Assembly: GCF_000981785.2 (NCBI RefSeq) | Contig: NZ_CP011304.1 | Coordinates: forward strand, 570,001 to 602,000 | Direction: 5' to 3' | Length of the DNA: 32,000 nucleotides | Origin: Microcystis aeruginosa NIES-2549 | GTDB taxonomy: Bacteria > Cyanobacteriota > Cyanobacteriia > Cyanobacteriales > Microcystaceae | Shown here: positions 357-27,246 of the stretch, in pieces | Layout: the number at the start of each line of letters is the position of its first letter | How positions within the stretch are numbered: the first letter of the stretch is position 1 | Notes under the pieces: model-generated | Database searches by the model: none | What the model saw: the letters and a program-made list of their open reading frames with translations, nothing else | Told to the model about the DNA's origin: nothing | Translations under genes and position numbers: made by a program

Positions 357-729
357 GGGGAAAATTAAGGCCTAGACTGGAATAGTGTTTAATGTATCAT
401 TTTGTCACGGCTCGATCGGTTAAAATCTTGCTAATTTTGCGCTAGTCTATCTCGATAACATGGTAGACTATGCTGTACTGTCTAGGGGTTTTTCTGGCTC
501 TAGCTTGAGTGATCGAAGTCTAGCCTAGACTTAAAGTTAACTAAAAGTCCGTCATTGCCAGTGGATCGAAGAAAATTGCTAAAATCGCCTCTACTATTGC
601 TTGATGTCCCGAAAAATATTCCTAAACCGCATTTTTTTCCGTAAACCGTTCAGGGAAAATAACATCAAGATACCTGTCCATCTTCCCGAAACACCTTCCA
701 TCCCTAAAAATGTCTATTCGTTCAGTGAC

Positions 730-1584
730 ATGATCATCGAGCTAGAAACCCAAAACCACCAAAATCCTACCCCCATATCTCTCAAAACGGCGATTTTAGT
801 CATTGGAGGTGCCGAGGATAAAGTCCACGGTAAAGAGATACTGCATACCTTTTGGAATCGCGCTGGGGGTAGCGAAGCAGTGATCGCTATTGTTCCCTCC
901 GCTTCCAGAGAACCGGTGTTAATCGGCGATCGCTATCAGAAGATTTTCGAGGAAATGGGGGCAAAATACGTCAAAGTTATCGATATTCGTGATCGCGTAC
1001 AGGGAGAAGACCCCCAATTCCAGGCCTACATCGAAGAATGTACAGGTGTATTTATGACTGGAGGCGACCAGCTGCGTTTATGCGGTTTGCTCTCCGATAC
1101 CCCCCTGATGGAAAGAATCAGACAAAGAGTGCAACAGGGAGAACTGACCTTGGCTGGAACTAGCGCCGGGGCTGCCGTTATGGGTCATCACATGATTGCC
1201 GGGGGCAGCAGCGGGGAAGCACCCAATCGGGCCCTAGTGGACATGGCCATGGGATTAGGTCTCATTCCTGAAGTCATTGTCGATCAACATTTCCACAATC
1301 GCAACCGCATGGCTCGGTTAATGAGCGCTATCTCTGGTTATCCCGAACGTTTAGGAATTGGCATCGATGAGGATACCTGCGCTATGTTTGAACGGGATGG
1401 CACGATGACGGTAATCGGCTGCGGTACGGTAACGGTAATTGATGCCAGGGAAATGTCCCACACCAACCACCATCACGTCACCGCCAACGAACCCCTGAGT
1501 CTGCATAATCTGCGGGTGCATATTCTTTCCTACGGTGATAGCTATCATCTCAAAAAACACCAAGTGATCGCTAAATTAGGGTAA
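730..1584 (+). CDS. cphB: Cyanophycinase (peptidase S51)
   Basis: The ORF is 601..1584. It contains ILVIGGAEDK, FMTGGDQLRL, GTSAGAAVMG (catalytic Ser) and DQHFHNRNRMARL, typical of CphB. The TTG at 601 adds about 43 poorly conserved residues. ATG at 730 (MIIELETQ...) gives a length of 284 aa, close to the roughly 270-aa length I recall for characterised cyanophycinases. The start is uncertain. Confidence 0.9.
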   Translation: MIIELETQNHQNPTPISLKTAILVIGGAEDKVHGKEILHTFWNRAGGSEAVIAIVPSASREPVLIGDRYQKIFEEMGAKYVKVIDIRDRVQGEDPQFQAYIEECTGVFMTGGDQLRLCGLLSDTPLMERIRQRVQQGELTLAGTSAGAAVMGHHMIAGGSSGEAPNRALVDMAMGLGLIPEVIVDQHFHNRNRMARLMSAISGYPERLGIGIDEDTCAMFERDGTMTVIGCGTVTVIDAREMSHTNHHHVTANEPLSLHNLRVHILSYGDSYHLKKHQVIAKLG

Positions 1585-1600
1585 AAAAACTCCTGAAAAA

Positions 1601-1620
1601 CTGTTCATCGTGAACAGTTT
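1601..1620 (+). terminator. Small hairpin plus TTT downstream of cphB (weak intrinsic terminator candidate)
   Basis: ctgttca-tcg-tgaacag forms a perfect 7-bp stem (1601-1617) followed by ttt, 17 nt after the cphB stop. Confidence 0.3.
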
Positions 1621-1694
1621 ACCGATCTCGGAAACCCAGACAATAAACAACGGCTTCTTTGTGCTTCTCAACAGCGAACACCAGCTATATCGTC

Positions 1695-1906
1695 ACTAAC
1701 CCCGCCCTAAAAGGGACGGGGTTTGCCTAAACCAATTTAGGCGACGCAAGTAGAGACTACCGCACCGAGACGCAATCTGGCACAGACCTCCGAATGCTTC
1801 CCTAGTTCGGATTCTCTCTAAGCTTTATTGGTAAAGCGTTGTTAGACAAGACATCTTGATTGTGTTGCGGTAAGGGACTTTAACTTCACTCTTAAGGATT
1901 ATCTCC
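1695..1906 (+). ncRNA. Candidate omega-RNA scaffold of the IsrB element (extent uncertain; the guide is expected just 5' of the scaffold)
   Basis: In IscB/IsrB systems the omega-RNA is encoded directly upstream of the nuclease ORF, sometimes overlapping it. This roughly 210-nt leader has no credible ORF. It contains the hairpins 1700-1721, 1725-1742 (gcctaaa/tttaggc) and 1789-1811 (tccgaa/ttcgga). No covariance-model check was possible. Confidence 0.4.
1700..1721 (+). repeat. 5'-side subterminal hairpin (LE-like)
   Basis: ccccgccct-aaa-aggg(a)cgggg forms a 9-bp stem with one bulged A, followed by gttt. A near-identical stem and tail occur at 3015-3047. Confidence 0.6.
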
Positions 1907-3004
1907 ATGGCAAGAGTTCCTGTTATCTCAAAAGACGGAAAACCGTTGATGCCCACTAAACCCAGTCGGGCCAGGCGGTGGATTAAGGAAGGAAAAGCTA
2001 TCGGTAAATTCAACGACTTAGATATTTTCTATGTCCAGTTAACCGATGAACCTTCCGATAACAAAACCCAACCGATTGCTATTGGTATTGACCAGGGTAA
2101 ATTATTTTCGGGAATTGGCGTTCAATCCTCTCTTTTTACTCTTTGGAAGGCTCACTTAGAACTTCCTTTTAAACGAGTAAAAGAGCGCATGGACAATCGC
2201 TGCTTAATGCGAAGAGGACGTAGAGGAAGACGGATTAACCGCCAACTTCCTTTTAATCTAAGAGCGCATCGACAAAAACGATTCTTAAATAGAAGACAAG
2301 GAAAATTAGCTCCCTCAATCAGAGCTAATCGTCAACTTGAACTTCGAGTCGTTTCCGAACTAACCAAAATCTATCCAATTACCGATATTTATTTTGAGTA
2401 CATCAAAGCCGATGTTGATTTAACTTCTGGTAGAAAAGGGGCTAAGTCTGGAAAAGGTTTCTCGCCGGTTATGGTTGGACAAAAATGGGCTATTGAGCAA
2501 CTGTCTCAGTTTGCAACAGTCCATACTCGCTTTGGTTGGCAAACCTCTAATCTCAGAAAACATTTGCGACTAGAAAAGTCTAAAAATAAAGCAGAACAAT
2601 CACCAGAAAGTCATGCTAACGATGGAATTGCTCTTGCCTGTTTTCAATTTTTAGATTATTTGCCATTTCACAATTCTAATGGTCATGGATATGATTGGAA
2701 GGGTTATGTTAAAGTAACAAACGCTCCCTTTGCTGTCATCAAACGTCCTCCTATTAGTCGTCGTCAACTTCACCTGATGGTTTTTTCTAAAGGTGGTAAA
2801 CGACGTAAATATGGTGGCTCTACCACAAGACATGGGTTCCGTAAAGGAGATTTAGTTTCTTCTCCCAAAGGGATTGGTTATGTAAGTGGAGATACCGAAA
2901 AACAGCTATCTGTAAGCGATACCAGTTGGAAACGATTGGGACAAATAGCTGTTAGCAAGATTCAGTTAATTCGTCGTTCTAACGGTTTAATTGTTTCTCA
3001 CTAA
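1907..3004 (+). CDS. isrB: IsrB-type OMEGA nuclease (IscB homologue lacking HNH; RRXRR/PLMP-domain RuvC protein)
   Basis: Motifs seen: PLMP (VISKDGKPLMPTKPSRARRW); RuvC-I (IAIGIDQGKLFSGIGV); Arg-rich bridge helix (RRGRRGRRINRQ...RFLNRRQGKLAPSIRANRQ); RuvC-II (TDIYFEYIKAD); RuvC-III (ESHANDGIALA). The C-terminus is beta-rich (GFRKGDLV...GIGYVSGD). Only about 65 aa separate RuvC-II from RuvC-III, and there is no CxxC/HNH signature. At 365 aa the size fits IsrB rather than IscB. Confidence 0.75.
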   Translation: MARVPVISKDGKPLMPTKPSRARRWIKEGKAIGKFNDLDIFYVQLTDEPSDNKTQPIAIGIDQGKLFSGIGVQSSLFTLWKAHLELPFKRVKERMDNRCLMRRGRRGRRINRQLPFNLRAHRQKRFLNRRQGKLAPSIRANRQLELRVVSELTKIYPITDIYFEYIKADVDLTSGRKGAKSGKGFSPVMVGQKWAIEQLSQFATVHTRFGWQTSNLRKHLRLEKSKNKAEQSPESHANDGIALACFQFLDYLPFHNSNGHGYDWKGYVKVTNAPFAVIKRPPISRRQLHLMVFSKGGKRRKYGGSTTRHGFRKGDLVSSPKGIGYVSGDTEKQLSVSDTSWKRLGQIAVSKIQLIRRSNGLIVSH

Positions 3005-3014
3005 CTTGTATAAA

Positions 3015-3044
3015 GCCGCCCTCCGCTATCGCTAAAGGGCGGGG
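3015..3044 (+). repeat. 3'-side subterminal hairpin (RE-like)
   Basis: ccgccct (3016-3022) pairs with agggcgg (3036-3042) across a 13-nt loop, followed by ggtttcag. It shares ctaaaggg(a)cggggttt with the 1700-1724 copy and ends 19 nt before the cphA ATG. Confidence 0.6.
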
Positions 3045-3063
3045 TTTCAGACCCATTTTTTCG

Positions 3064-5697
3064 ATGAAAATTCTCAGAACCCAAACCCTGCGCGGTCCCA
3101 ACTACTGGAGTATTCGTCGCGACAAGCTCATTGTTATGCGTCTAGATCTCGAAGATCTCGCAGAGAAGCCATCGAATGAAATCCCAGGCTTTTATGAGGG
3201 ACTAATCGATGTTCTCCCCAGTTTAGTCGAACATTACTGCTCCCCCGGTTATCGCGGCGGTTTCTTTGAACGAGTCCGCACTGGCACTTATATGGGCCAC
3301 ATTATCGAACATATCGCCCTGGAATTGCAGGAATTGGCGGGAACTCCCGTCGGGTTTGGTCGCACTAGAGGCACCTCAACCCCAGGAGTCTATAACGTGG
3401 TGTTTGAATACGTTGAGGAGCAAGCGGGACGTTATGCGGGTCGGGCTGCCGTGCGGTTGTGTCAATCGATTGTCGATACGGGAACCTATCCTCAGGAAGA
3501 ATTGGCCCAAGATTTAGCCGATTTACGCGATTTATGCAATAATGCCTCCCTCGGTCCGAGTACCGAAACCATCGTCAAAGAAGCACAAGCTAGAAATATC
3601 CCCTGGTTACTCCTGAGCGCTCGTGCCATGGTGCAATTGGGCTATGGCGTTCACCAAAAGCGCATTCAAGCCACTTTAAGCAGTTTTTCGGGGATTTTAG
3701 CCGTTGAGTTGGCCTGTGACAAGGAAGGCACGAAAACTATCCTCAAGGATGCCGGCATTCCCGTCCCCCGGGGTACGGTGATTCAATACTTGGATGAGTT
3801 GTCAGCGGCAATCGAGGAAGTGGGAGGATTTCCCATCGTGATTAAACCCCTCGATGGCAACCACGGCCGCGGCATCAGCATCGACATCAAAAATCAGCAG
3901 GAAGCAGAGGAAGCCTATGATCTAGCCAGTGCCGCCTCGAAAACCCGCAGCGTGATCGTAGAAAGGTACTATAAAGGCAGTGATCACCGAATTTTAGTCA
4001 TAAATGGCAAAGTCGCCGCCGTGGCCGAACGGATCCCCGCTCACGTCGTCGGTAATGGGCGCTCAACTATAGAAGAATTAATCGAAATTACTAATCGGGA
4101 TCCCAACCGGGGTGAGGGTCACGCCAACGTTTTAACTAAAATAACTATTGACAAAACCGCCCTTAATGTGCTAGGGAAACAGGGCTATGAATTAACCAGC
4201 ATTTTACCCCAAGGTGCGATTGCCTATCTGCGGGCCACGGCTAATTTAAGCACCGGCGGCATCGCCGTGGATCGTACCGACGAAATTCACCCCGAAAACG
4301 TCTGGATCGCCCAAAGAGTGGCAAAATTAATCGGTTTGGACATTGCCGGGATCGATGTGGTGACAGAGGATATCCGCAAACCCCTGCGAGAAGTGGACGG
4401 GGTAATCGTAGAAGTCAACGCCGCTCCCGGTTTTCGGATGCACGTCGCCCCCAGTCGCGGTTTACCCCGCAATATCGCCGCCCCGGTTATCGATATGTTA
4501 TTCCCCCCCGGGACTCCCAGTCGCGTGCCGATTCTGGCAATTACGGGAACTAACGGCAAAACCACCACTAGCCGCTTAATTTCTCATATTTGCCGACAAA
4601 CGGGGAAAGTAGTCGGATTTACCACGACGGACGGCGTATATATCGATGATTATCTGGTAGAAAAGGGCGATAACACCGGTCCCTACAGTGCCAGTATGAT
4701 TTTGAAGGATCCCACAGTCGAGATTGCCGTATTAGAAACGGCCCGGGGTGGTATCCTGCGATCGGGTTTAGCCTTTAATCAGTGCGATGTGGGAGTGGTG
4801 TTAAATGTGGCCGCTGACCATTTGGGTATCGGTGATATCGACACCATTGAACAAATGGCAAAAGTAAAAAGCGTTGTGGCCGAGGTGGTTAGCGCCGAGG
4901 GTTACGCGGTTTTAAATGCCGATGACCCCTTGACCGCTAGTATGGCCGAAAAAGTCAAGGGAAGAGTGGCTTATTTTTCCATGAGTGCCGATAACCCGAT
5001 TATTCACGACCATATCCGTCGCGGTGGCATGGCCGCCATTTATGAGAATGGCTATCTGTCGATTCTAGAGGGAGAATGGACGCTGAGAATCGAGGAAGCG
5101 GTCAATATTCCCGTGACTATGCAGGGAATGGCCCCTTTTATGATTGCTAACGCCTTGGCCGCCTGTTTAGCCACTTTTGTGCAGGGTATCGATATCGAGT
5201 TAATTCGCCAAGGAGTGCGGACTTTTAAACCTTCCGTGGCCCAGACCCCCGGCAGGATGAACTTGTTTGACTTGGGACACCATCACGCTTTAATCGATTA
5301 TGCCCATAATCCGGCTGGATACGAAGCCGTCGGCGGTTTTGTCGGCAATTGGTCCGGGGAAAAAGTCGGCGTGGTCGGCGGACCTGGCGATCGACGCGAT
5401 GATGATTTAATTTTATTAGGGAAATTATCAGCCCAAATGTTCGATCGAATTATTGTTAAGGAAGATAACGATACTCGCGGTCGCCGCCGGGGGGAAGTGG
5501 CCGATTTAATTCTCCGGGGAATTAGCCAAGAAAATGCCAGTTTGCGGCCGGAAGTTATTCTCGATGAAACGGAGGCTTTAGAGAAGGCTTTAAGCACGGT
5601 TTCTGAGGGTGGTTTAGTGGTAATTTTCCCGGAAAGTGTCACCCAGGCGATCGATTTGATCGAGAAACATCGACCCCTGACCGATAACCGGGGTTAA
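3064..5697 (+). CDS. cphA: Cyanophycin synthetase
   Basis: 877 aa. The N-terminus MKILRTQTLRGPNYWS is followed by an ATP-grasp region (IVIKPLDGNHGRG) and a Mur-ligase-like C-terminal half (ITGTNGKTTT P-loop). It lies next to cphB. Confidence 0.95.
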   Translation: MKILRTQTLRGPNYWSIRRDKLIVMRLDLEDLAEKPSNEIPGFYEGLIDVLPSLVEHYCSPGYRGGFFERVRTGTYMGHIIEHIALELQELAGTPVGFGRTRGTSTPGVYNVVFEYVEEQAGRYAGRAAVRLCQSIVDTGTYPQEELAQDLADLRDLCNNASLGPSTETIVKEAQARNIPWLLLSARAMVQLGYGVHQKRIQATLSSFSGILAVELACDKEGTKTILKDAGIPVPRGTVIQYLDELSAAIEEVGGFPIVIKPLDGNHGRGISIDIKNQQEAEEAYDLASAASKTRSVIVERYYKGSDHRILVINGKVAAVAERIPAHVVGNGRSTIEELIEITNRDPNRGEGHANVLTKITIDKTALNVLGKQGYELTSILPQGAIAYLRATANLSTGGIAVDRTDEIHPENVWIAQRVAKLIGLDIAGIDVVTEDIRKPLREVDGVIVEVNAAPGFRMHVAPSRGLPRNIAAPVIDMLFPPGTPSRVPILAITGTNGKTTTSRLISHICRQTGKVVGFTTTDGVYIDDYLVEKGDNTGPYSASMILKDPTVEIAVLETARGGILRSGLAFNQCDVGVVLNVAADHLGIGDIDTIEQMAKVKSVVAEVVSAEGYAVLNADDPLTASMAEKVKGRVAYFSMSADNPIIHDHIRRGGMAAIYENGYLSILEGEWTLRIEEAVNIPVTMQGMAPFMIANALAACLATFVQGIDIELIRQGVRTFKPSVAQTPGRMNLFDLGHHHALIDYAHNPAGYEAVGGFVGNWSGEKVGVVGGPGDRRDDDLILLGKLSAQMFDRIIVKEDNDTRGRRRGEVADLILRGISQENASLRPEVILDETEALEKALSTVSEGGLVVIFPESVTQAIDLIEKHRPLTDNRG

Positions 5698-7294: not shown

Positions 7295-8104
7295 ATGACG
7301 ATTGCCAAAAGCGACGAAACTGCCACCTCTCCGGCACTGATAGAAGAAGATTTCGAGGACTTCTGGGAACCCGCCCCACCCCCCACAGACTTAATTTTTG
7401 ATGATGGTGAACCCTTGGAAAGCAACCGACACCGCATTGCCATGAATGTGCTGATTCGCTCCCTACAGCAAGGTTACGGCGAGCGAGACGACTTCTACAC
7501 CAGTGGCAATATGTTTATTTATTTCAGCCGCGAACAGGCGAAAAATCGCGATTTTCGCGGGCCCGATTTCTTCGCCGTCCTCAATGTTGATGGCAAGAGA
7601 GAGCGACAGGGTTGGGTAATTTGGGAAGAAGAGGGACGTTATCCCGACGTTATCGTGGAATTAACATCTTCTAGTACCGCTAAGACCGATAAAGTGCGAA
7701 AAAAAGCCATTTATGAGGGAACCTTCCGCACACCAGATTATTTCATCTACGATCCTTTTGATGCCAATTCTTTACAAGGATGGCATTTAGGGGCCGACCA
7801 ACGCTACCATTCTTTAGAACGAAACGAGCGCGGCTGGTTATGGTGCGAAACTTTAGGCTATTGGTTGGGAACTTGGGAGGGGACTATTGACCGAGAAACG
7901 GCAATTTGGGTGAGATTTTATGACCCAGAAGGCAAATTAATCCCCTTGCCAGAAGAAGCGGCCCAGGAACAAGCGGCTGCGGCACAGGAGCAGGCAGCCG
8001 CAGCACAGGAGCAATTAAATGCTACTCAGCAAGCTCTGGAAGCGGAAAGACAGCGTTCTCAACAGCTGGCGGCTCGTTTGCGAGAAATGGGGATAGAGCT
8101 ATAG
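7295..8104 (+). CDS. Uma2-family (DUF820) putative endonuclease with a C-terminal Q/A/E coiled-coil tail
   Basis: GEPLESNRHRIAMNVLIRSL, NMFIYF, PDFFAVLNV and PDVIVELTSSST...K..Y match the Uma2/PD-(D/E)xK layout abundant in cyanobacteria. The tail is EEAAQEQAAAAQEQAAAAQEQ. Confidence 0.8.
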   Translation: MTIAKSDETATSPALIEEDFEDFWEPAPPPTDLIFDDGEPLESNRHRIAMNVLIRSLQQGYGERDDFYTSGNMFIYFSREQAKNRDFRGPDFFAVLNVDGKRERQGWVIWEEEGRYPDVIVELTSSSTAKTDKVRKKAIYEGTFRTPDYFIYDPFDANSLQGWHLGADQRYHSLERNERGWLWCETLGYWLGTWEGTIDRETAIWVRFYDPEGKLIPLPEEAAQEQAAAAQEQAAAAQEQLNATQQALEAERQRSQQLAARLREMGIEL

Positions 8105-8301
8105 TATAGCTGTATTTGTTTAGGTGAGGAGGTAAACTGCTCCTGTTCCTCCTCGTTCAAAGTCGGTTAATTTCCCCTTTCACGGTTGAGGAAGCCTGCA
8201 ATCCCAGTGTATTTGAAATCTAGCGCGACACCTGTTTGCTGCTGTGATTACCTTTCGACCAGTCGGTAATTATTGATCAGAGTTTTCTTGGATTCTTCCT
8301 T

Positions 8302-8363
8302 AAACAGTAAACAGTGAACTGAAAACTCAAATCTGATAACTGATAACTGATAATTGATAACTG
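8302..8363. repeat. Heptamer (STRR-like) array (CTGATAA)n with a 17-mer anchor
   Basis: aaacagtaaacagtgaactgaaaactcaaat is followed by ctgataa x3, ttgataa and ctg. The anchor CAGTGAACTGAAAACTC lies at 8312-8328. Confidence 0.9.
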
Positions 8364-8399
8364 TCTCAACTAGGAAATTTATTTGGCACGACTACTTAT

Positions 8400-9773
8400 A
8401 TGTCTAATCTATCTTTTGGCGCACAACCTCCTCTAGAATTTATACCCCCTGACCTTAATCCCTTGCTTTTAAAGGGATGTCAAATCTTTTTACCTCTCTG
8501 GTTACAAACTAAAACCAATTTAAGAGAAATTTCCGCCGCCAATCTAGAAACTTTAATCACATTTTATCAAAAAAGTCAAGAGAAAAAAGTCCGTTTACTG
8601 CTGGCTTTTCGTCATCCTAGTATTAACGATCCCTACTGTATGGCCTATCTTTTGTGGAAATTAGTACCCAAAAAAGCCCAAGAGTTAGGAATAAAATTAC
8701 CGGCACCGACTCACGCTCATTTTATGTACGATCGAGGGATTCCTTTATGGGCTGGAGAAAGGGTAGGATGGTTATATTCTAAGTTGGGTGGCACACCAAT
8801 TCAACGGGGAAAAGCCGATTTAATCGGATTGCGTTCGGCTCGTCGTTTATTATTAGAAGGAGATTATCCTCTAGCTGCCGCTCCAGAAGGGGCAACTAAC
8901 GGACATAATGAGCTTGTCAGTGCTATTGAACCGGGTATTTCTCAATTAGCTTTTTGGGGTGTGGATGATGTCAGAAAAGCTAAACAACAGCAGGAAGTAA
9001 TTATTTTACCCATTGGTATTCAGTATTTTTATCTAACTCCAGTCTGGCAAGAAATCGAGCAAATTTTAACTAATTTAGAAACCGATAGCGGTTTACAACC
9101 AATCCCGAATTCATCCCTAGAAGAAAAGGTTTTATACGAGCGTCTTTTTCGGTTAGGAGAAAGATTATTATCCTTAATGGAGGATTTTTATCGAGATTTC
9201 TACTATCAATCTTTGCCTGTAGTACCTGCCAATGGCGATGATCCAAACGAAACCCTAGCCAAACGTTTAGCCAATTTATTAGATGTGGCCCTACAAACCG
9301 CAGAAAAGTATTTTAATATTTCTCCTAATGGTAATGTGATCGATCGCTGTCGTCGTTTGGAACAAGCAGGATGGGAACGCATTTATCGGGAAGAATTAAA
9401 ACCCACTCATTCTATTTCTCCCCTTGAATTAGGATTAGCTGATCGCCTGGCCGATGAAGCTAATTTAAAAATGTGGCACATGAGAATTGTGGAAAGTTTT
9501 GTGTCAGTAACTGGTTATTATGTCAAGGAAAAACCCACTGTAGAAAGATTTGCCGAGACAATTTTATTACTCTGGGATTTAGTGACAAGAATTAAAGGAG
9601 GTAATCCCTTTTTCCGTCCCCAAATTGGTCAACAAAAAGCGATAATAACTATCGGTAAACCTATTTCCGTATCCGATCGCTATGGCGATTATAAAAGTGA
9701 TCGACGCTCGGCCGTAGCACAATTAACCCAAGATTTACAAACCAGTTTAGAAAGTTTAATTATTCATCAGTAG
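8400..9773 (+). CDS. Phospholipid/glycerol acyltransferase family protein (PlsC-like)
   Basis: The HX4D motif (FRHPSINDP) and the PEG motif (AAPEGATNG) are present. 457 aa. Confidence 0.7.
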   Translation: MSNLSFGAQPPLEFIPPDLNPLLLKGCQIFLPLWLQTKTNLREISAANLETLITFYQKSQEKKVRLLLAFRHPSINDPYCMAYLLWKLVPKKAQELGIKLPAPTHAHFMYDRGIPLWAGERVGWLYSKLGGTPIQRGKADLIGLRSARRLLLEGDYPLAAAPEGATNGHNELVSAIEPGISQLAFWGVDDVRKAKQQQEVIILPIGIQYFYLTPVWQEIEQILTNLETDSGLQPIPNSSLEEKVLYERLFRLGERLLSLMEDFYRDFYYQSLPVVPANGDDPNETLAKRLANLLDVALQTAEKYFNISPNGNVIDRCRRLEQAGWERIYREELKPTHSISPLELGLADRLADEANLKMWHMRIVESFVSVTGYYVKEKPTVERFAETILLLWDLVTRIKGGNPFFRPQIGQQKAIITIGKPISVSDRYGDYKSDRRSAVAQLTQDLQTSLESLIIHQ

Positions 9774-9810
9774 ATAATTAGGGTTTGCTGAAAAAGTTTG
9801 TTGGTGGAGT

Positions 9811-9866
9811 CAGTTATCAGTTATCAGTTATCAGTTATCAGTTATCAGTTATCAGTTATCAGTTCA
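9811..9866. repeat. Heptamer array (CAGTTAT) x7 plus one degenerate unit; reverse complement of the 8333-8363 array
   Basis: There are seven perfect cagttat units at 9811-9859, then cagttca. Confidence 0.95.
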
Positions 9867-9888
9867 CTGAGAAAACACCCCACACCCC

Positions 9889-9980
9889 TAGGGTTAATTC
9901 ATAGTAGGGTTAATTCATGGTAGGGTTAATTCATGGTAGGGTTGATTCATGGTAGGGTTGATTCATGAATCAACCCTACC
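9889..9980. repeat. 16-nt tandem repeat (GGGTTRATTCATGGTA, about 4.75 copies) ending in a 30-nt palindrome
   Basis: Units start at 9891, 9907, 9923, 9939 and 9955. The terminal sequence ggtagggttgattc-at-gaatcaaccctacc (9951-9980) is a perfect inverted repeat. The array is flanked on both sides by cacacccc. Confidence 0.9.
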
Positions 9981-10723: not shown

Positions 10724-11938
10724 TTAATTTAAAACTTCTAACACTGCTTGGGGTGATAATTTATCTTTAAACCAGATAACCTGAGCGGGTAGATTTTGGA
10801 ATTTAACTCCAGCTTTTTCGAGATTTAACCGTTCCGATACGGCTAAAATTAGATTATTTGCTTGGGCCGATTTAACCTGTAAAAATTTCTTTTGTAGGTA
10901 TTCTGGTCGCCAATAACCAACAATTTCTAGGAGAAAAACGCGACCATCGGGATGCACTAAACGGAAATCGGGAATCATCACTCCTCCGGGTAAAGGCACT
11001 AAATCCACTTCCCTTTCTAACTGCCATTCAGTTTTTAACTGTAACCAACGTTTAGCGAAAGATTCCTCTAACATACTATCGTAGGGTTTACCCGGGGAAT
11101 AGTGGGACACCAGACCACAGTTATCCTCTAAATTGAACTGTTGTTTTTTAATAGTTCCTGTGTAGGAATCTTTGTACTGTAATTGTGCCTTCAGATTCCA
11201 GTGAGTAACATGGAGTAAGGCAGGAATTAATTTAGCGATTTCAATGCCATAACGACTATTAGCTTTAAATAAACTGGTGGGACCATCGATAGTAATAGTA
11301 AATCCCGTGTCGGCATCCCCTTCGATATAAGTCATTAAACGAAATAGTTTTAGATAGCGAAAGAGATATTTATATTCCCCCGGATCGTTGCGGTGGACGT
11401 TGATAATTAAATAACTGGCCCGATAAAAAATCCCTTGAATTTGGGAGAGGTTAAAACGATGAATTAGGTTTTCGGGGGTGGGAGCATCAAATTGAGTGAG
11501 AATTTTATTCTCTGCTAAATCAGCATAGAGTCCTTTTTCTAGAGCCACTGGAAAAATTTCTTGATTTAATTCTTGGCTGAGTTGCTGGGCAATTTTTCCC
11601 AGAATTAGCGATCGATTTTGGGGAATAGGAACAAAGTTGGCCGCTTGTTCAAAAACTCTTTTTCTTAATTCCTGCGGTTCTAAGGGACTAATAATCTCAA
11701 AGGTGGCAAAATGATTGGTTAATAGGTGAGCAAATCCCCGTTTAATTTTATAATCGGGACTGTCTCCCTCCAAGATTAGGAGTTTTTGGCTTAATTCTCC
11801 CTTAGTTGCACCGATACTTTCCTGAAAACAGGTGATTTGTTCTTTGGCGATCGCCAGATAATCGCCAGCGAGGGGTAAGCGTTTAGGAATAATTGTCTCG
11901 CCATTTTGACGGGAAATCAATAAATCGGTCGGTAACAT
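10724..11938 (-). CDS. DUF790-family (Bax1-like) putative endonuclease
   Basis: The N-terminus is MLPTDLLISRQNGETIIP. The C-terminus VMIPDFRLVHPDGRVFLLEIVGYWRPEYLQKK matches, from memory, the conserved DUF790 nuclease core (PDF...EIVGxWxPEYL). Confidence 0.65.
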   Translation of the reverse strand: MLPTDLLISRQNGETIIPKRLPLAGDYLAIAKEQITCFQESIGATKGELSQKLLILEGDSPDYKIKRGFAHLLTNHFATFEIISPLEPQELRKRVFEQAANFVPIPQNRSLILGKIAQQLSQELNQEIFPVALEKGLYADLAENKILTQFDAPTPENLIHRFNLSQIQGIFYRASYLIINVHRNDPGEYKYLFRYLKLFRLMTYIEGDADTGFTITIDGPTSLFKANSRYGIEIAKLIPALLHVTHWNLKAQLQYKDSYTGTIKKQQFNLEDNCGLVSHYSPGKPYDSMLEESFAKRWLQLKTEWQLEREVDLVPLPGGVMIPDFRLVHPDGRVFLLEIVGYWRPEYLQKKFLQVKSAQANNLILAVSERLNLEKAGVKFQNLPAQVIWFKDKLSPQAVLEVLN

Positions 11939-12479: not shown

Positions 12480-12589
12480 GTTCTTCGTTACTTGGTCTGG
12501 TTCGATCGGGTGATCGCTAAATGTCTTTCTCTATAATAGTTTCATCCCTTATAACCCCGTCCATTCCATAACAGGAACCGAAAGGCCAT

Positions 12590-12665
12590 CAGTGAACTGA
12601 AAACTCACCACTGATAACTGATAACTGATAACTGATAACTGATAACTGATCACTGATCACTGAAG
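12590..12665. repeat. 17-mer anchor plus (CTGATAA)x5 and (CTGATCA)x2 array, abutting the stop codon of the 64-aa ORF
   Basis: CAGTGAACTGAAAACTC lies at 12590-12606 and the heptamers at 12611-12659. The array is in inverted orientation relative to 12445-12479. Confidence 0.95.
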
Positions 12666-12860
12666 TTACCGACGCGGAACGAGATTAATCCGGCCTTCGT
12701 CCATTTCATCCATGAGTAACTCTAGGGCCTCGTAATCCACATCGGAAACGTAGCCAAGACGAGCGAGGAGTTCATTAATTCCATTCTCGATTTCTGGCGT
12801 GATTTGACGATAATATAGGGCTTTTTCCACTAATTGGCGGATAGTCGGCTGGGTATCCAC
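12666..12860 (-). CDS. Hypothetical small protein (64 aa, GTG start)
   Basis: The ORF is the only support. The acidic C-terminal half (DVDYEALELLMDEMDEGR) looks protein-like. I recognise no family. Confidence 0.4.
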   Translation of the reverse strand: MDTQPTIRQLVEKALYYRQITPEIENGINELLARLGYVSDVDYEALELLMDEMDEGRINLVPRR

Positions 12861-15173: not shown

Positions 15174-15199
15174 GTAGGTTGATTCATGAATCAACCTAC
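15174..15199. repeat. 26-nt palindrome related to the terminal palindrome of the 16-mer array
   Basis: gtaggttgattc-at-gaatcaacctac shares the core ttgattcatgaatcaa with 9951-9980. It lies 27 nt after the BON gene stop. Confidence 0.8.
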
Positions 15200-26266: not shown

Positions 26267-26293
26267 CCTGCAAAATTAATTTGCTAGTCGAGA

Positions 26294-26324
26294 CAGTTAT
26301 CAGTTATCAGTTATCAGTTATCAG
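26294..26324. repeat. Heptamer array (CAGTTAT x4)
   Basis: Four perfect units lie at 26294-26321, followed by cag. Confidence 0.9.
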
Positions 26325-26374
26325 ATTTAAGTTTTAAGTGAGCAGTATTAAATAGAAGTTTCCTACTGTCTTTT

Positions 26375-27126: not shown

Positions 27127-27169
27127 TAATAATACTTAAATCCTGTTTAGCGTACCATATCTCAGGGAT

Positions 27170-27246
27170 CAGTGATCAGTTACCAGTTATCAGATGGGAG
27201 TTTTCAGTTCACTGATTACTGATTACTGCTTACTGATAACTGAACA
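27170..27246. repeat. Back-to-back inverted heptamer arrays with the 17-mer anchor between them
   Basis: cagtgat cagttac cagttat cag spans 27170-27193. The reverse complement of CAGTGAACTGAAAACTC lies at 27198-27214. ctgatta x2, ctgctta, ctgataa and ctgaaca span 27212-27246. Confidence 0.9.

Follow-up and report, generated by a model that had tools for sequence, protein, structure and literature searches.

IsrB proteins are omegaRNA-guided nickases that recognize an NTGA target-adjacent motif (TAM); the TAMs of DtIsrB (Desulfovirgula thermocuniculi, structure 8DMB) and CwIsrB are NTGA/NTG (PMC9581776). Two cyanobacterial members, CwIsrB (Crocosphaera watsonii) and DsIsrB (Dolichospermum sp.), nick DNA (PMC9581776), and their omegaRNAs belong to group B2, which has pseudoknots at stem-loops SL2-SL5 and SL4, lacks SL3 and goes with an NTG TAM (PMC9581776). 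Within Microcystis, the IsrB element containing orf2067 of Microcystis aeruginosa FACHB-1339 (207 bp upstream and 59 bp downstream of the gene) moved into phage Mic1 at an ATGA sequence (PMC11237433). According to the model put forward for the family, the omegaRNA abuts the transposon end and draws its guide from the flank, excision by TnpA leaves a scarless donor joint, and the flank-guided, TAM-dependent nuclease attacks that joint, whereupon recombination with the sister copy restores the element (PMC9581776; bioRxiv 10.1101/2023.03.14.532601). The elements are co-oriented with the upstream gene, and cleavage of the donor joint favours retention (bioRxiv 10.1101/2023.03.14.532601). Here we describe a locus of this kind in a 32,000-nt stretch of Microcystis aeruginosa NIES-2549 (GCF_000981785.2, contig NZ_CP011304.1, forward-strand positions 570,001-602,000), which is called the window below. 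Window positions 1692-3063 on the plus strand are, with high confidence, a non-autonomous IS200/IS605-type (ISC1) element composed of an omegaRNA scaffold and an IsrB gene, inserted at the start codon of cphA, which encodes cyanophycin synthetase. The element, its parts and its neighbours are as follows.

1692-3063, plus strand: mobile element of 1,372 bp; the homology common to all Microcystis copies begins at 1692 and ends at 3063 (plus ATGA).
1692-1906, plus strand: omegaRNA scaffold of the HEARO type, 215 nt, from the HEARO match and covariation.
1907-3004, plus strand: IsrB gene, 365 amino acids (aa), from the RRXRR match and the DtIsrB alignment.
3016-3042, plus strand: subterminal hairpin of the far end, CCGCCCU...AGGGCGG, resembling SL1 in sequence and conserved in about 45 copies.
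3064-3067, plus strand: ATGA, target site of the transposon as well as predicted TAM, single in the empty site; its ATG is the cphA start codon.
3064-5697, plus strand: cphA (cyanophycin synthetase), assigned from its Pfam domains, with a start codon that abuts the element.
601-1584, plus strand: open frame of the upstream host gene cphB (cyanophycinase; Pfam Peptidase_S51); the gene called on the empty-site contig L080 equals 604-1584.
1585-1691, plus strand: native cphB-cphA intergenic spacer, 107 nt of host DNA outside the element, contiguous with the cphA ATG in L080.

The ends of the element were defined by comparison with its relatives and with an empty site. A homologue scan restricted to one genome per species gave 79 related loci, all cyanobacterial except for two short contigs of one metagenome-assembled genome labelled Alphaproteobacteria. 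BLASTN against the Microcystis copies gave 93-98% identity over a shared stretch that comprises 1692-3067 only, except in L054 (Microcystis sp. T1-4), where the element likewise adjoins cphA. The left edge is sharp (GTCACTAACCCC...), the upstream flanks being unrelated between copies, and the right edge reads ...CATTTTTTCG, then ATGA, then unrelated sequence. About 45 of 45 aligned copies end in front of an ATGA, although in L076 it lies a few bases farther on. Several Microcystis assemblies contain two to three copies, and further copies are present in many cyanobacterial genera and in phages.

The empty allele was found through a look-up of the exact CphA protein. In L080, which encodes an identical CphA, the flanks are 99.5% identical to those of the window, cphB and cphA are 107 nt apart, and the empty junction consists of ...CAGCTATATC joined directly to ATGAAAATT, with ATGA present once. 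The insertion is therefore exactly 1692-3063, with both ends fixed to the base, and ATGA is host DNA. Comparison of the filled and empty sites gave no target-site duplication and no terminal inverted repeats; precise insertion without either is a hallmark of IS200/IS605-family elements. Strains of 99.5% identity differ in whether the site is occupied, which implies recent movement. A preliminary description of this DNA had put the element at 1590-3063, which was exact at the right end and about 100 nt too far upstream at the left. It had also reported an ORF-free (open reading frame-free) structured stretch upstream of the gene. The 322 nt between cphB and the IsrB ORF indeed contain no plus-strand ORF of at least 50 aa, but only 1692-1906 are element, 1585-1691 being host spacer. 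Further copies and an empty cphB-cphA site, both of which it had proposed to look for, were found, the copies having different flanks.

The 365-aa ORF exists between cphB and cphA and translates as first quoted. Its product has the IsrB layout: PLMP, RuvC-I (D62), an Arg-rich bridge helix, RuvC-II (E164), RuvC-III (H236 and D239) and a C-terminal TAM-interacting domain, with the motifs KPLMPT (residues 13-18), GIDQGK, the Arg-rich R102-R109, FEY and SHANDG in conserved positions. Pfam recognized a single family, RRXRR (PF14239, E 1.7e-51, residues 4-181); neither an HNH domain (at E <= 0.01) nor a zinc finger was reported. E164 and H236 are 72 residues apart, with a 71-residue linker between them. 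The best match among all PDB sequences (phmmer) was DtIsrB (8dmb_P, E 6.9e-40, residues 2-361); GIDQG is paired with VDPG, FEY with TE and SHAND with THAND, and the catalytic D, E and H..D line up. IscB structures aligned N-terminally only in the phmmer search of the PDB, over residues 1-116, or 4-175 in the case of HfmIscB. The NCBIfam IscB equivalog covered profile positions 3-162 of 314 only and scored 109.7 against a cut-off of 175, a half-match that is expected because the HNH insertion is absent. In an alignment with 46 homologues of 66-95% identity, D62, E164, H236 and D239 are invariant (47 homologues), as are the PLMP residues L14, M15 and P16, in a region that aligns with the PLMP domain of DtIsrB. 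As for the C-terminal domain, the DtIsrB alignment runs to residue 361, and an AlphaFold2 (AF2) model has beta strands at 316-356 with a predicted local distance difference test score (pLDDT) of about 80-85. When the AF2 model was submitted to Foldseek, 8dmb_P was the top hit (E 5.8e-21, probability 1.0) and the IscB structures came next, a ranking that supports the predicted fold and does not verify the active-site geometry.

These alignments identify the protein as IsrB of full length that has the predicted RuvC catalytic residues and no HNH domain, and the absence of the latter leads us to expect a nickase rather than a double-strand nuclease. [quoted passage not shown] One residue of the window copy is unusual. 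Codon 63 (2093-2095, plus strand), beside the catalytic Asp62, is CAG (Gln), whereas 98% of the 46 homologues have Pro (GIDPG), and Q63 is the sole departure of the window protein from columns conserved at >=90%. CAG recurs at this codon in two other Microcystis copies, L002 and L012, and L065 has CGG (Arg). These variants suggest either that the change has arisen repeatedly or that there is a sub-lineage in which the neighbour of the active site is altered.

Upstream of the gene, a search with the Rfam HEARO model (RF02033) using E-value reporting matched 1692-1884 over the full model (positions 1-211; 40.6 bits, E 1.6e-6), whereas Rfam at gathering thresholds gave no match anywhere in the window. 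The RNA is probably HEARO-like in its working, and by the Rfam cut-off it is a divergent subtype. The predicted RNA features are the following.

1692-1697/1752-1757, plus strand: stem S1, from covariation.
1700-1721, plus strand: SL1, from covariation.
1724-1743, plus strand: SL2, from covariation.
1789-1811, plus strand: SL4, from covariation.
1822-1837, plus strand: SL5, from covariation.
1760-1763/1867-1870 and 1769-1780/1855-1866, plus strand: long-range stems, from covariation.
1731-1736/1827-1832, plus strand: adaptor pseudoknot of the SL2 loop ACCAAU with the SL5 loop AUUGGU; four of six pairs covary and 96.6% of alignment cells pair.
1799-1803/1873-1877, plus strand: nexus pseudoknot of the SL4 loop UCCCU with AGGGA; two of five pairs covary and 98.6% of cells pair.
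1672-1691, plus strand: predicted guide segment CAGCGAACACCAGCUAUAUC, 20 nt of host flank 5' of the scaffold, from the published architecture.

The alignment behind these assignments ran from the first base of the element to the IsrB ATG in 29 diverse cyanobacterial copies. RNAalifold applied to the 29 copies returned 48 pairs, 39 of which have compensatory changes. With S1 added, changes on both sides were seen in 42 of 54 pairs, and 97.2% of cells pair. When the partners were shifted by 1-3 columns as a control, pairing fell to 30-47% of cells, and none of 500 shuffles reached the observed values. The window scaffold folded alone gave the same helices (z-score -2.9), and the window sequence preserves every helix of the omegaRNA. 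The covarying changes of the nexus are C-G to U-A or G-C and U-A to C-G. The two covarying pseudoknots are the counterparts of the adaptor (SL2-SL5) and nexus (SL4) of the group B IsrB omegaRNAs (PMC9581776). The guide was placed at 1672-1691 because in the published layout the guide is 20 nt long and lies 5' of the scaffold (PMC9581776). This segment followed by ATGA recreates the empty-site sequence, and the left flanks differ in every copy. The ATGA after the copies and the recreation of the empty site by guide plus TAM fit the predicted RNA-guided nicking with an NTGA/NTG TAM.

The element ends 59 nt beyond the IsrB ORF in a segment that includes the far-end hairpin. As the preliminary description had noted, similar hairpins bracket the ORF, one at 1700-1721 (CCCCGCC...GGACGGGG) and the other at 3016-3042 (CCGCCCT...AGGGCGG). 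The latter is followed by a conserved 21-nt tail ending UUUUUUCG and has compensatory changes across the approximately 45 copies (GCCGCCCT/AGGGCGG versus GCCGTCCT/AGGACGG). The two subterminal hairpins are asymmetric, lying 8 nt from one end and 21 nt from the other, and by analogy with IS608 biology the hairpin at 3016-3042 is presumed to be a TnpA recognition hairpin. The element shares with IS608 the absence of inverted repeats and of target duplication, a fixed adjoining tetranucleotide and asymmetric, similar subterminal hairpins, but it differs in having no tnpA and in its target (ATGA/TCAT rather than TTAC). An IS608-like pairing of the target tetranucleotide with bases by the hairpin foot was also considered and dropped, as no convincing rule could be derived. 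Short minus-strand ORFs within the element (1825-2013 and 2651-2833) are overlapped by the conserved IsrB frame.

These features allow a direct comparison with the described systems. The window element and DtIsrB have in common PLMP, the split RuvC with its bridge helix, the absence of an HNH domain and the C-terminal TAM-interacting domain. They also share an omegaRNA directly upstream with S1, SL1, SL2, the long-range stems and both pseudoknots, and ATGA fits the NTGA TAM. The two proteins are only 27% identical (Foldseek alignment), the host of the window element is a mesophilic cyanobacterium, and the scaffold is 215 nt compared with 262 nt for DtIsrB, some peripheral stem-loops being absent. 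CwIsrB and DsIsrB belong to the same cyanobacterial lineage, and their B2-type pseudoknots without SL3 and their NTG TAM match the window, which differs from them in having Q63 rather than Pro. RRXRR proteins of C. watsonii, candidates for the tested CwIsrB, are 68-71% identical to the window protein. The orf2067 element, compared by its published description rather than by sequence, has 207 bp upstream and 59 bp downstream versus 215 and 59 here; its insertion site and that of the phage gp171 element described below differ from the cphA start codon. With IscB (OgeuIscB, 7XHT/7UTN) the element shares PLMP, RuvC-I, the bridge helix, the IS200/IS605 setting and a flank-derived guide (bioRxiv 10.1101/2023.03.14.532601), whereas the window protein has no HNH domain.

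The mechanism that we propose follows published work on these relatives. By way of the two subterminal hairpins, a Y1 TnpA encoded elsewhere would excise the element in the form of single-stranded DNA and would insert it beside ATGA (TCAT on the other strand). Read-through from cphB would transcribe the element to give an omegaRNA in which the final approximately 20 nt of host flank (1672-1691) serve as the 5' guide. Together with this omegaRNA, IsrB would then recognize the scarless empty cphB-cphA site (...CAGCGAACACCAGCTATATC-ATGA...) by guide match followed by the ATGA TAM and would nick its non-target strand, and recombination with the sister copy would restore the element. In the filled chromosome cphA would now be 1,372 bp from its native leader, and transcription would have to pass through the element.

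The insertion sites have a pattern of their own. Of 38 independent insertion sites, 26 (about 70%) are flanked by an ATGA whose ATG begins an ORF of at least 100 codons, compared with 16% of the other ATGA sites in the same flanks (binomial p about 6e-13). Examples are cphA (window 3064-3067), L004:4158, L012:4269, L019:4153 and gp170 of a Microcystis phage (L081:3872). In reconstructed empty sites the ATG is usually the first in-frame start following a stop, and no insertion in these sites breaks a long open frame in another register. The 22 spacers concerned hold 47 alternative ATGA/TCAT sites, and a generous null predicts about one third of insertions at start codons versus the three quarters seen. 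This is most simply explained by survivorship together with a need to lie in a sense-transcribed leader. We also raise, tentatively and as somewhat less than an even chance, the idea that the cyanobacterial IsrB lineage is in effect start-codon-seeking, its ATGA target/TAM coinciding with the common ATG-A start context. If so, the start-codon position would let a promoter-less element borrow the promoter of a host gene for its guide RNA and nuclease, and the conserved U-rich end of the element would replace the translation-initiation leader and could alter the expression of genes such as cphA. No description of a start-codon bias or of an ATGA/GTGA rule was found in the searchable literature, the coverage of which did not include the original HEARO (2009) and ISC (2015/16) papers.

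Two reconstructed empty sites, L032:2778 and L072:2799, have ATGA as an overlapping stop/start in which TGA closes the upstream open frame. The insertion thus removes the stop codon of the upstream gene and, as read by eye, the upstream frame of the filled sites would run a few codons into the element. In L032 the ATG opens a 259-codon downstream ORF; that of L072 has only 12 codons.

Complete copies with about 92% DNA identity are present in the Microcystis myophages Ma-LMM01, MaMV-DC, MaMV-DH01 and MaMV-CH01/02 (genus Fukuivirus). The Ma-LMM01 copy (L081:2501-3871; related matches H1-H7) lies between gp172 and gp170 and ends on the ATG annotated as the gp170 start (L081:3872). Its gp171 product is 94.8% identical to the window IsrB. 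Host and phage have the same active element family in common. At the same phage site MaMV-DL01 (L082:1798-2644), and also MaMV-DL02, retain only the two element ends. In MaMV-DL01 these remnants comprise roughly 95 nt of omegaRNA, the last part of the IsrB ORF and the end hairpin, and the interior has been swapped for a gene (200L) encoding a 192-aa homing-endonuclease-like protein with helix-turn-helix and HNH_3 domains.

Several observations weigh against a functional, mobile IsrB element at this locus. No TnpA gene was found in the element or among the window ORFs scanned, and whole genomes were not searched for a partner. Lacking a transposase, the element is non-autonomous, as likewise are about 98% of iscB genes (bioRxiv 10.1101/2023.03.14.532601). 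The HEARO score of 40.6 misses the gathering score of 83. The promoter scan predicted no plus-strand promoter upstream of the omegaRNA, the expression of which we infer: in 20 of 29 reconstructed sites the open frame upstream runs in the same direction, and given both findings the RNA probably stems from read-through from cphB. The quality of the AF2 model is medium (pLDDT 70, predicted TM score 0.50; the input was 47 fairly similar homologues), and its overall superposition on 8DMB is poor (TM 0.35-0.38, root-mean-square deviation 19 A for this pLDDT-70 model). The superposition proposed in the preliminary description is thus a weak check, in which 8dmb_P ranks top, and the assignment of the catalytic residues rests on the sequence alignment. 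No demonstration that IsrB achieves retention by a nick rather than by a double-strand break was found in the literature examined. Finally, with Q63 in place of a 98%-conserved Pro, the nuclease of the window copy may be weakened.

The last point leads to the alternative that the element is real and the window copy an inactive relic, in which the change from Pro63 to Gln disables nicking, no transposase is nearby and the copy merely persists. Q63 being the only departure from the >=90%-conserved columns, its recurrence among Microcystis copies that include a broken one (L012), and the failure to find TnpA among the scanned ORFs would all agree with such a relic. However, the ORF is full length with its four catalytic residues and all other conserved columns intact, the omegaRNA helices are likewise intact, and the polymorphism of the site between near-identical strains implies recent movement. 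Moreover, the Cas9 residue equivalent to IsrB position 63 is Ile, and hence Pro63 may not be essential. We regard a relic as unlikely and consider that, by analogy with its tested relatives, the window copy is probably, though by no means certainly, active as a nickase at present. A second possibility, that the host has co-opted the element as a regulatory leader of cphA whose terminal hairpin and U-run, or the binding of IsrB-omegaRNA, tunes expression, would make sense of the roughly 70% of independent insertions that coincide exactly with the start codon of a gene in the same orientation, Ma-LMM01 gp170 among them, and of the terminator-like hairpin and U-run ending at 3063 directly before the cphA ATG. 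It seems very improbable, as the insertion is missing from the near-identical strain and is thus not fixed at the locus, the nuclease residues remain conserved, in contrast to those of known nuclease-dead guide-RNA repressors, and survivorship together with the need for host transcription can account for the start-codon pattern.

The remaining two alternatives can be practically dismissed. Were the ORF and its upstream RNA an immobile, conserved single-copy resident of cyanophycin loci, the finding of the same cphA-adjacent insertion in Microcystis sp. T1-4 (L054) would be expected, but that copy is the exception: all others adjoin unrelated genes, phage genomes also carry copies, and the empty cphB-cphA site of L080 refutes the proposal. 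We give equally little credence to a double-strand nuclease of the IscB or Cas9 kind in which the HNH domain has diverged. The IscB structures and the NCBIfam IscB model do match the N-terminal part, but those matches stop at residue 116-175 and the model score is below its cut-off, whereas the DtIsrB alignment is full length across a linker of only 71 residues in which Pfam finds no HNH family.

The host genes that flank the element were assigned with Pfam. The cphB product matches Peptidase_S51 (E 9.9e-28; the L080 gene call is 326 aa), and CphA has an N-terminal Cyanophycin_syn domain followed by ATP-grasp and Mur ligase domains. Elsewhere in the window are intergenic heptamer arrays (ACTGATA / CAGTTAT) at 8298-8363, 9786-9877, 12576-12676, 26269-26346 and 27131-27243. 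An inverted heptamer pair (8305-8388 / 9786-9869) brackets an ORF of 457 aa (8400-9773), for which neither Pfam nor NCBIfam gave a match. A 16-nt tandem repeat, TAGGGTTAATTCATGG, of about five copies occupies 9889-9968 and ends in a 20-nt perfect palindrome, GGTTGATTCATGAATCAACC, at 9956-9975, an identical copy of which is at 15177-15196, 5.2 kb away. Near the repeat arrays are genes for a putative endonuclease of the Uma2 family that carries an AAQEQ repeat tail at its C-terminus (7295-8104) and a DUF790 protein (E 1.1e-150, 10724-11938), both of which may be related to defence or mobile elements.

The window element is genuine yet ordinary and belongs to a family known in cyanobacteria and their phages. 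The preliminary description had considered this copy, its RNA and its target specificity uncharacterised, a claim of novelty that was overstated: cyanobacterial IsrB nickases have been tested (PMC9581776) and a Microcystis element has been seen in phage Mic1 (PMC11237433). With tested relatives and known Microcystis and phage elements, the novelty is low, and the known workings of IsrB are unchanged by the window element. Only the start-codon pattern and the Q63 variant go beyond the routine. For annotation, what would be listed as an 'RRXRR domain-containing / hypothetical protein' becomes a fully delimited OMEGA element with defined ends, predicted guide and TAM, an RNA structure and a natural empty allele. 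If it reflects more than survivorship, the start-codon pattern would add a small new point on how promoter-less IS200/IS605 passengers are transcribed. For the biology of Microcystis, the locus documents a recently mobile element common to the host and its Fukuivirus phages, which in some strains only has cut off cphA from its native leader and thereby may affect cyanophycin metabolism.

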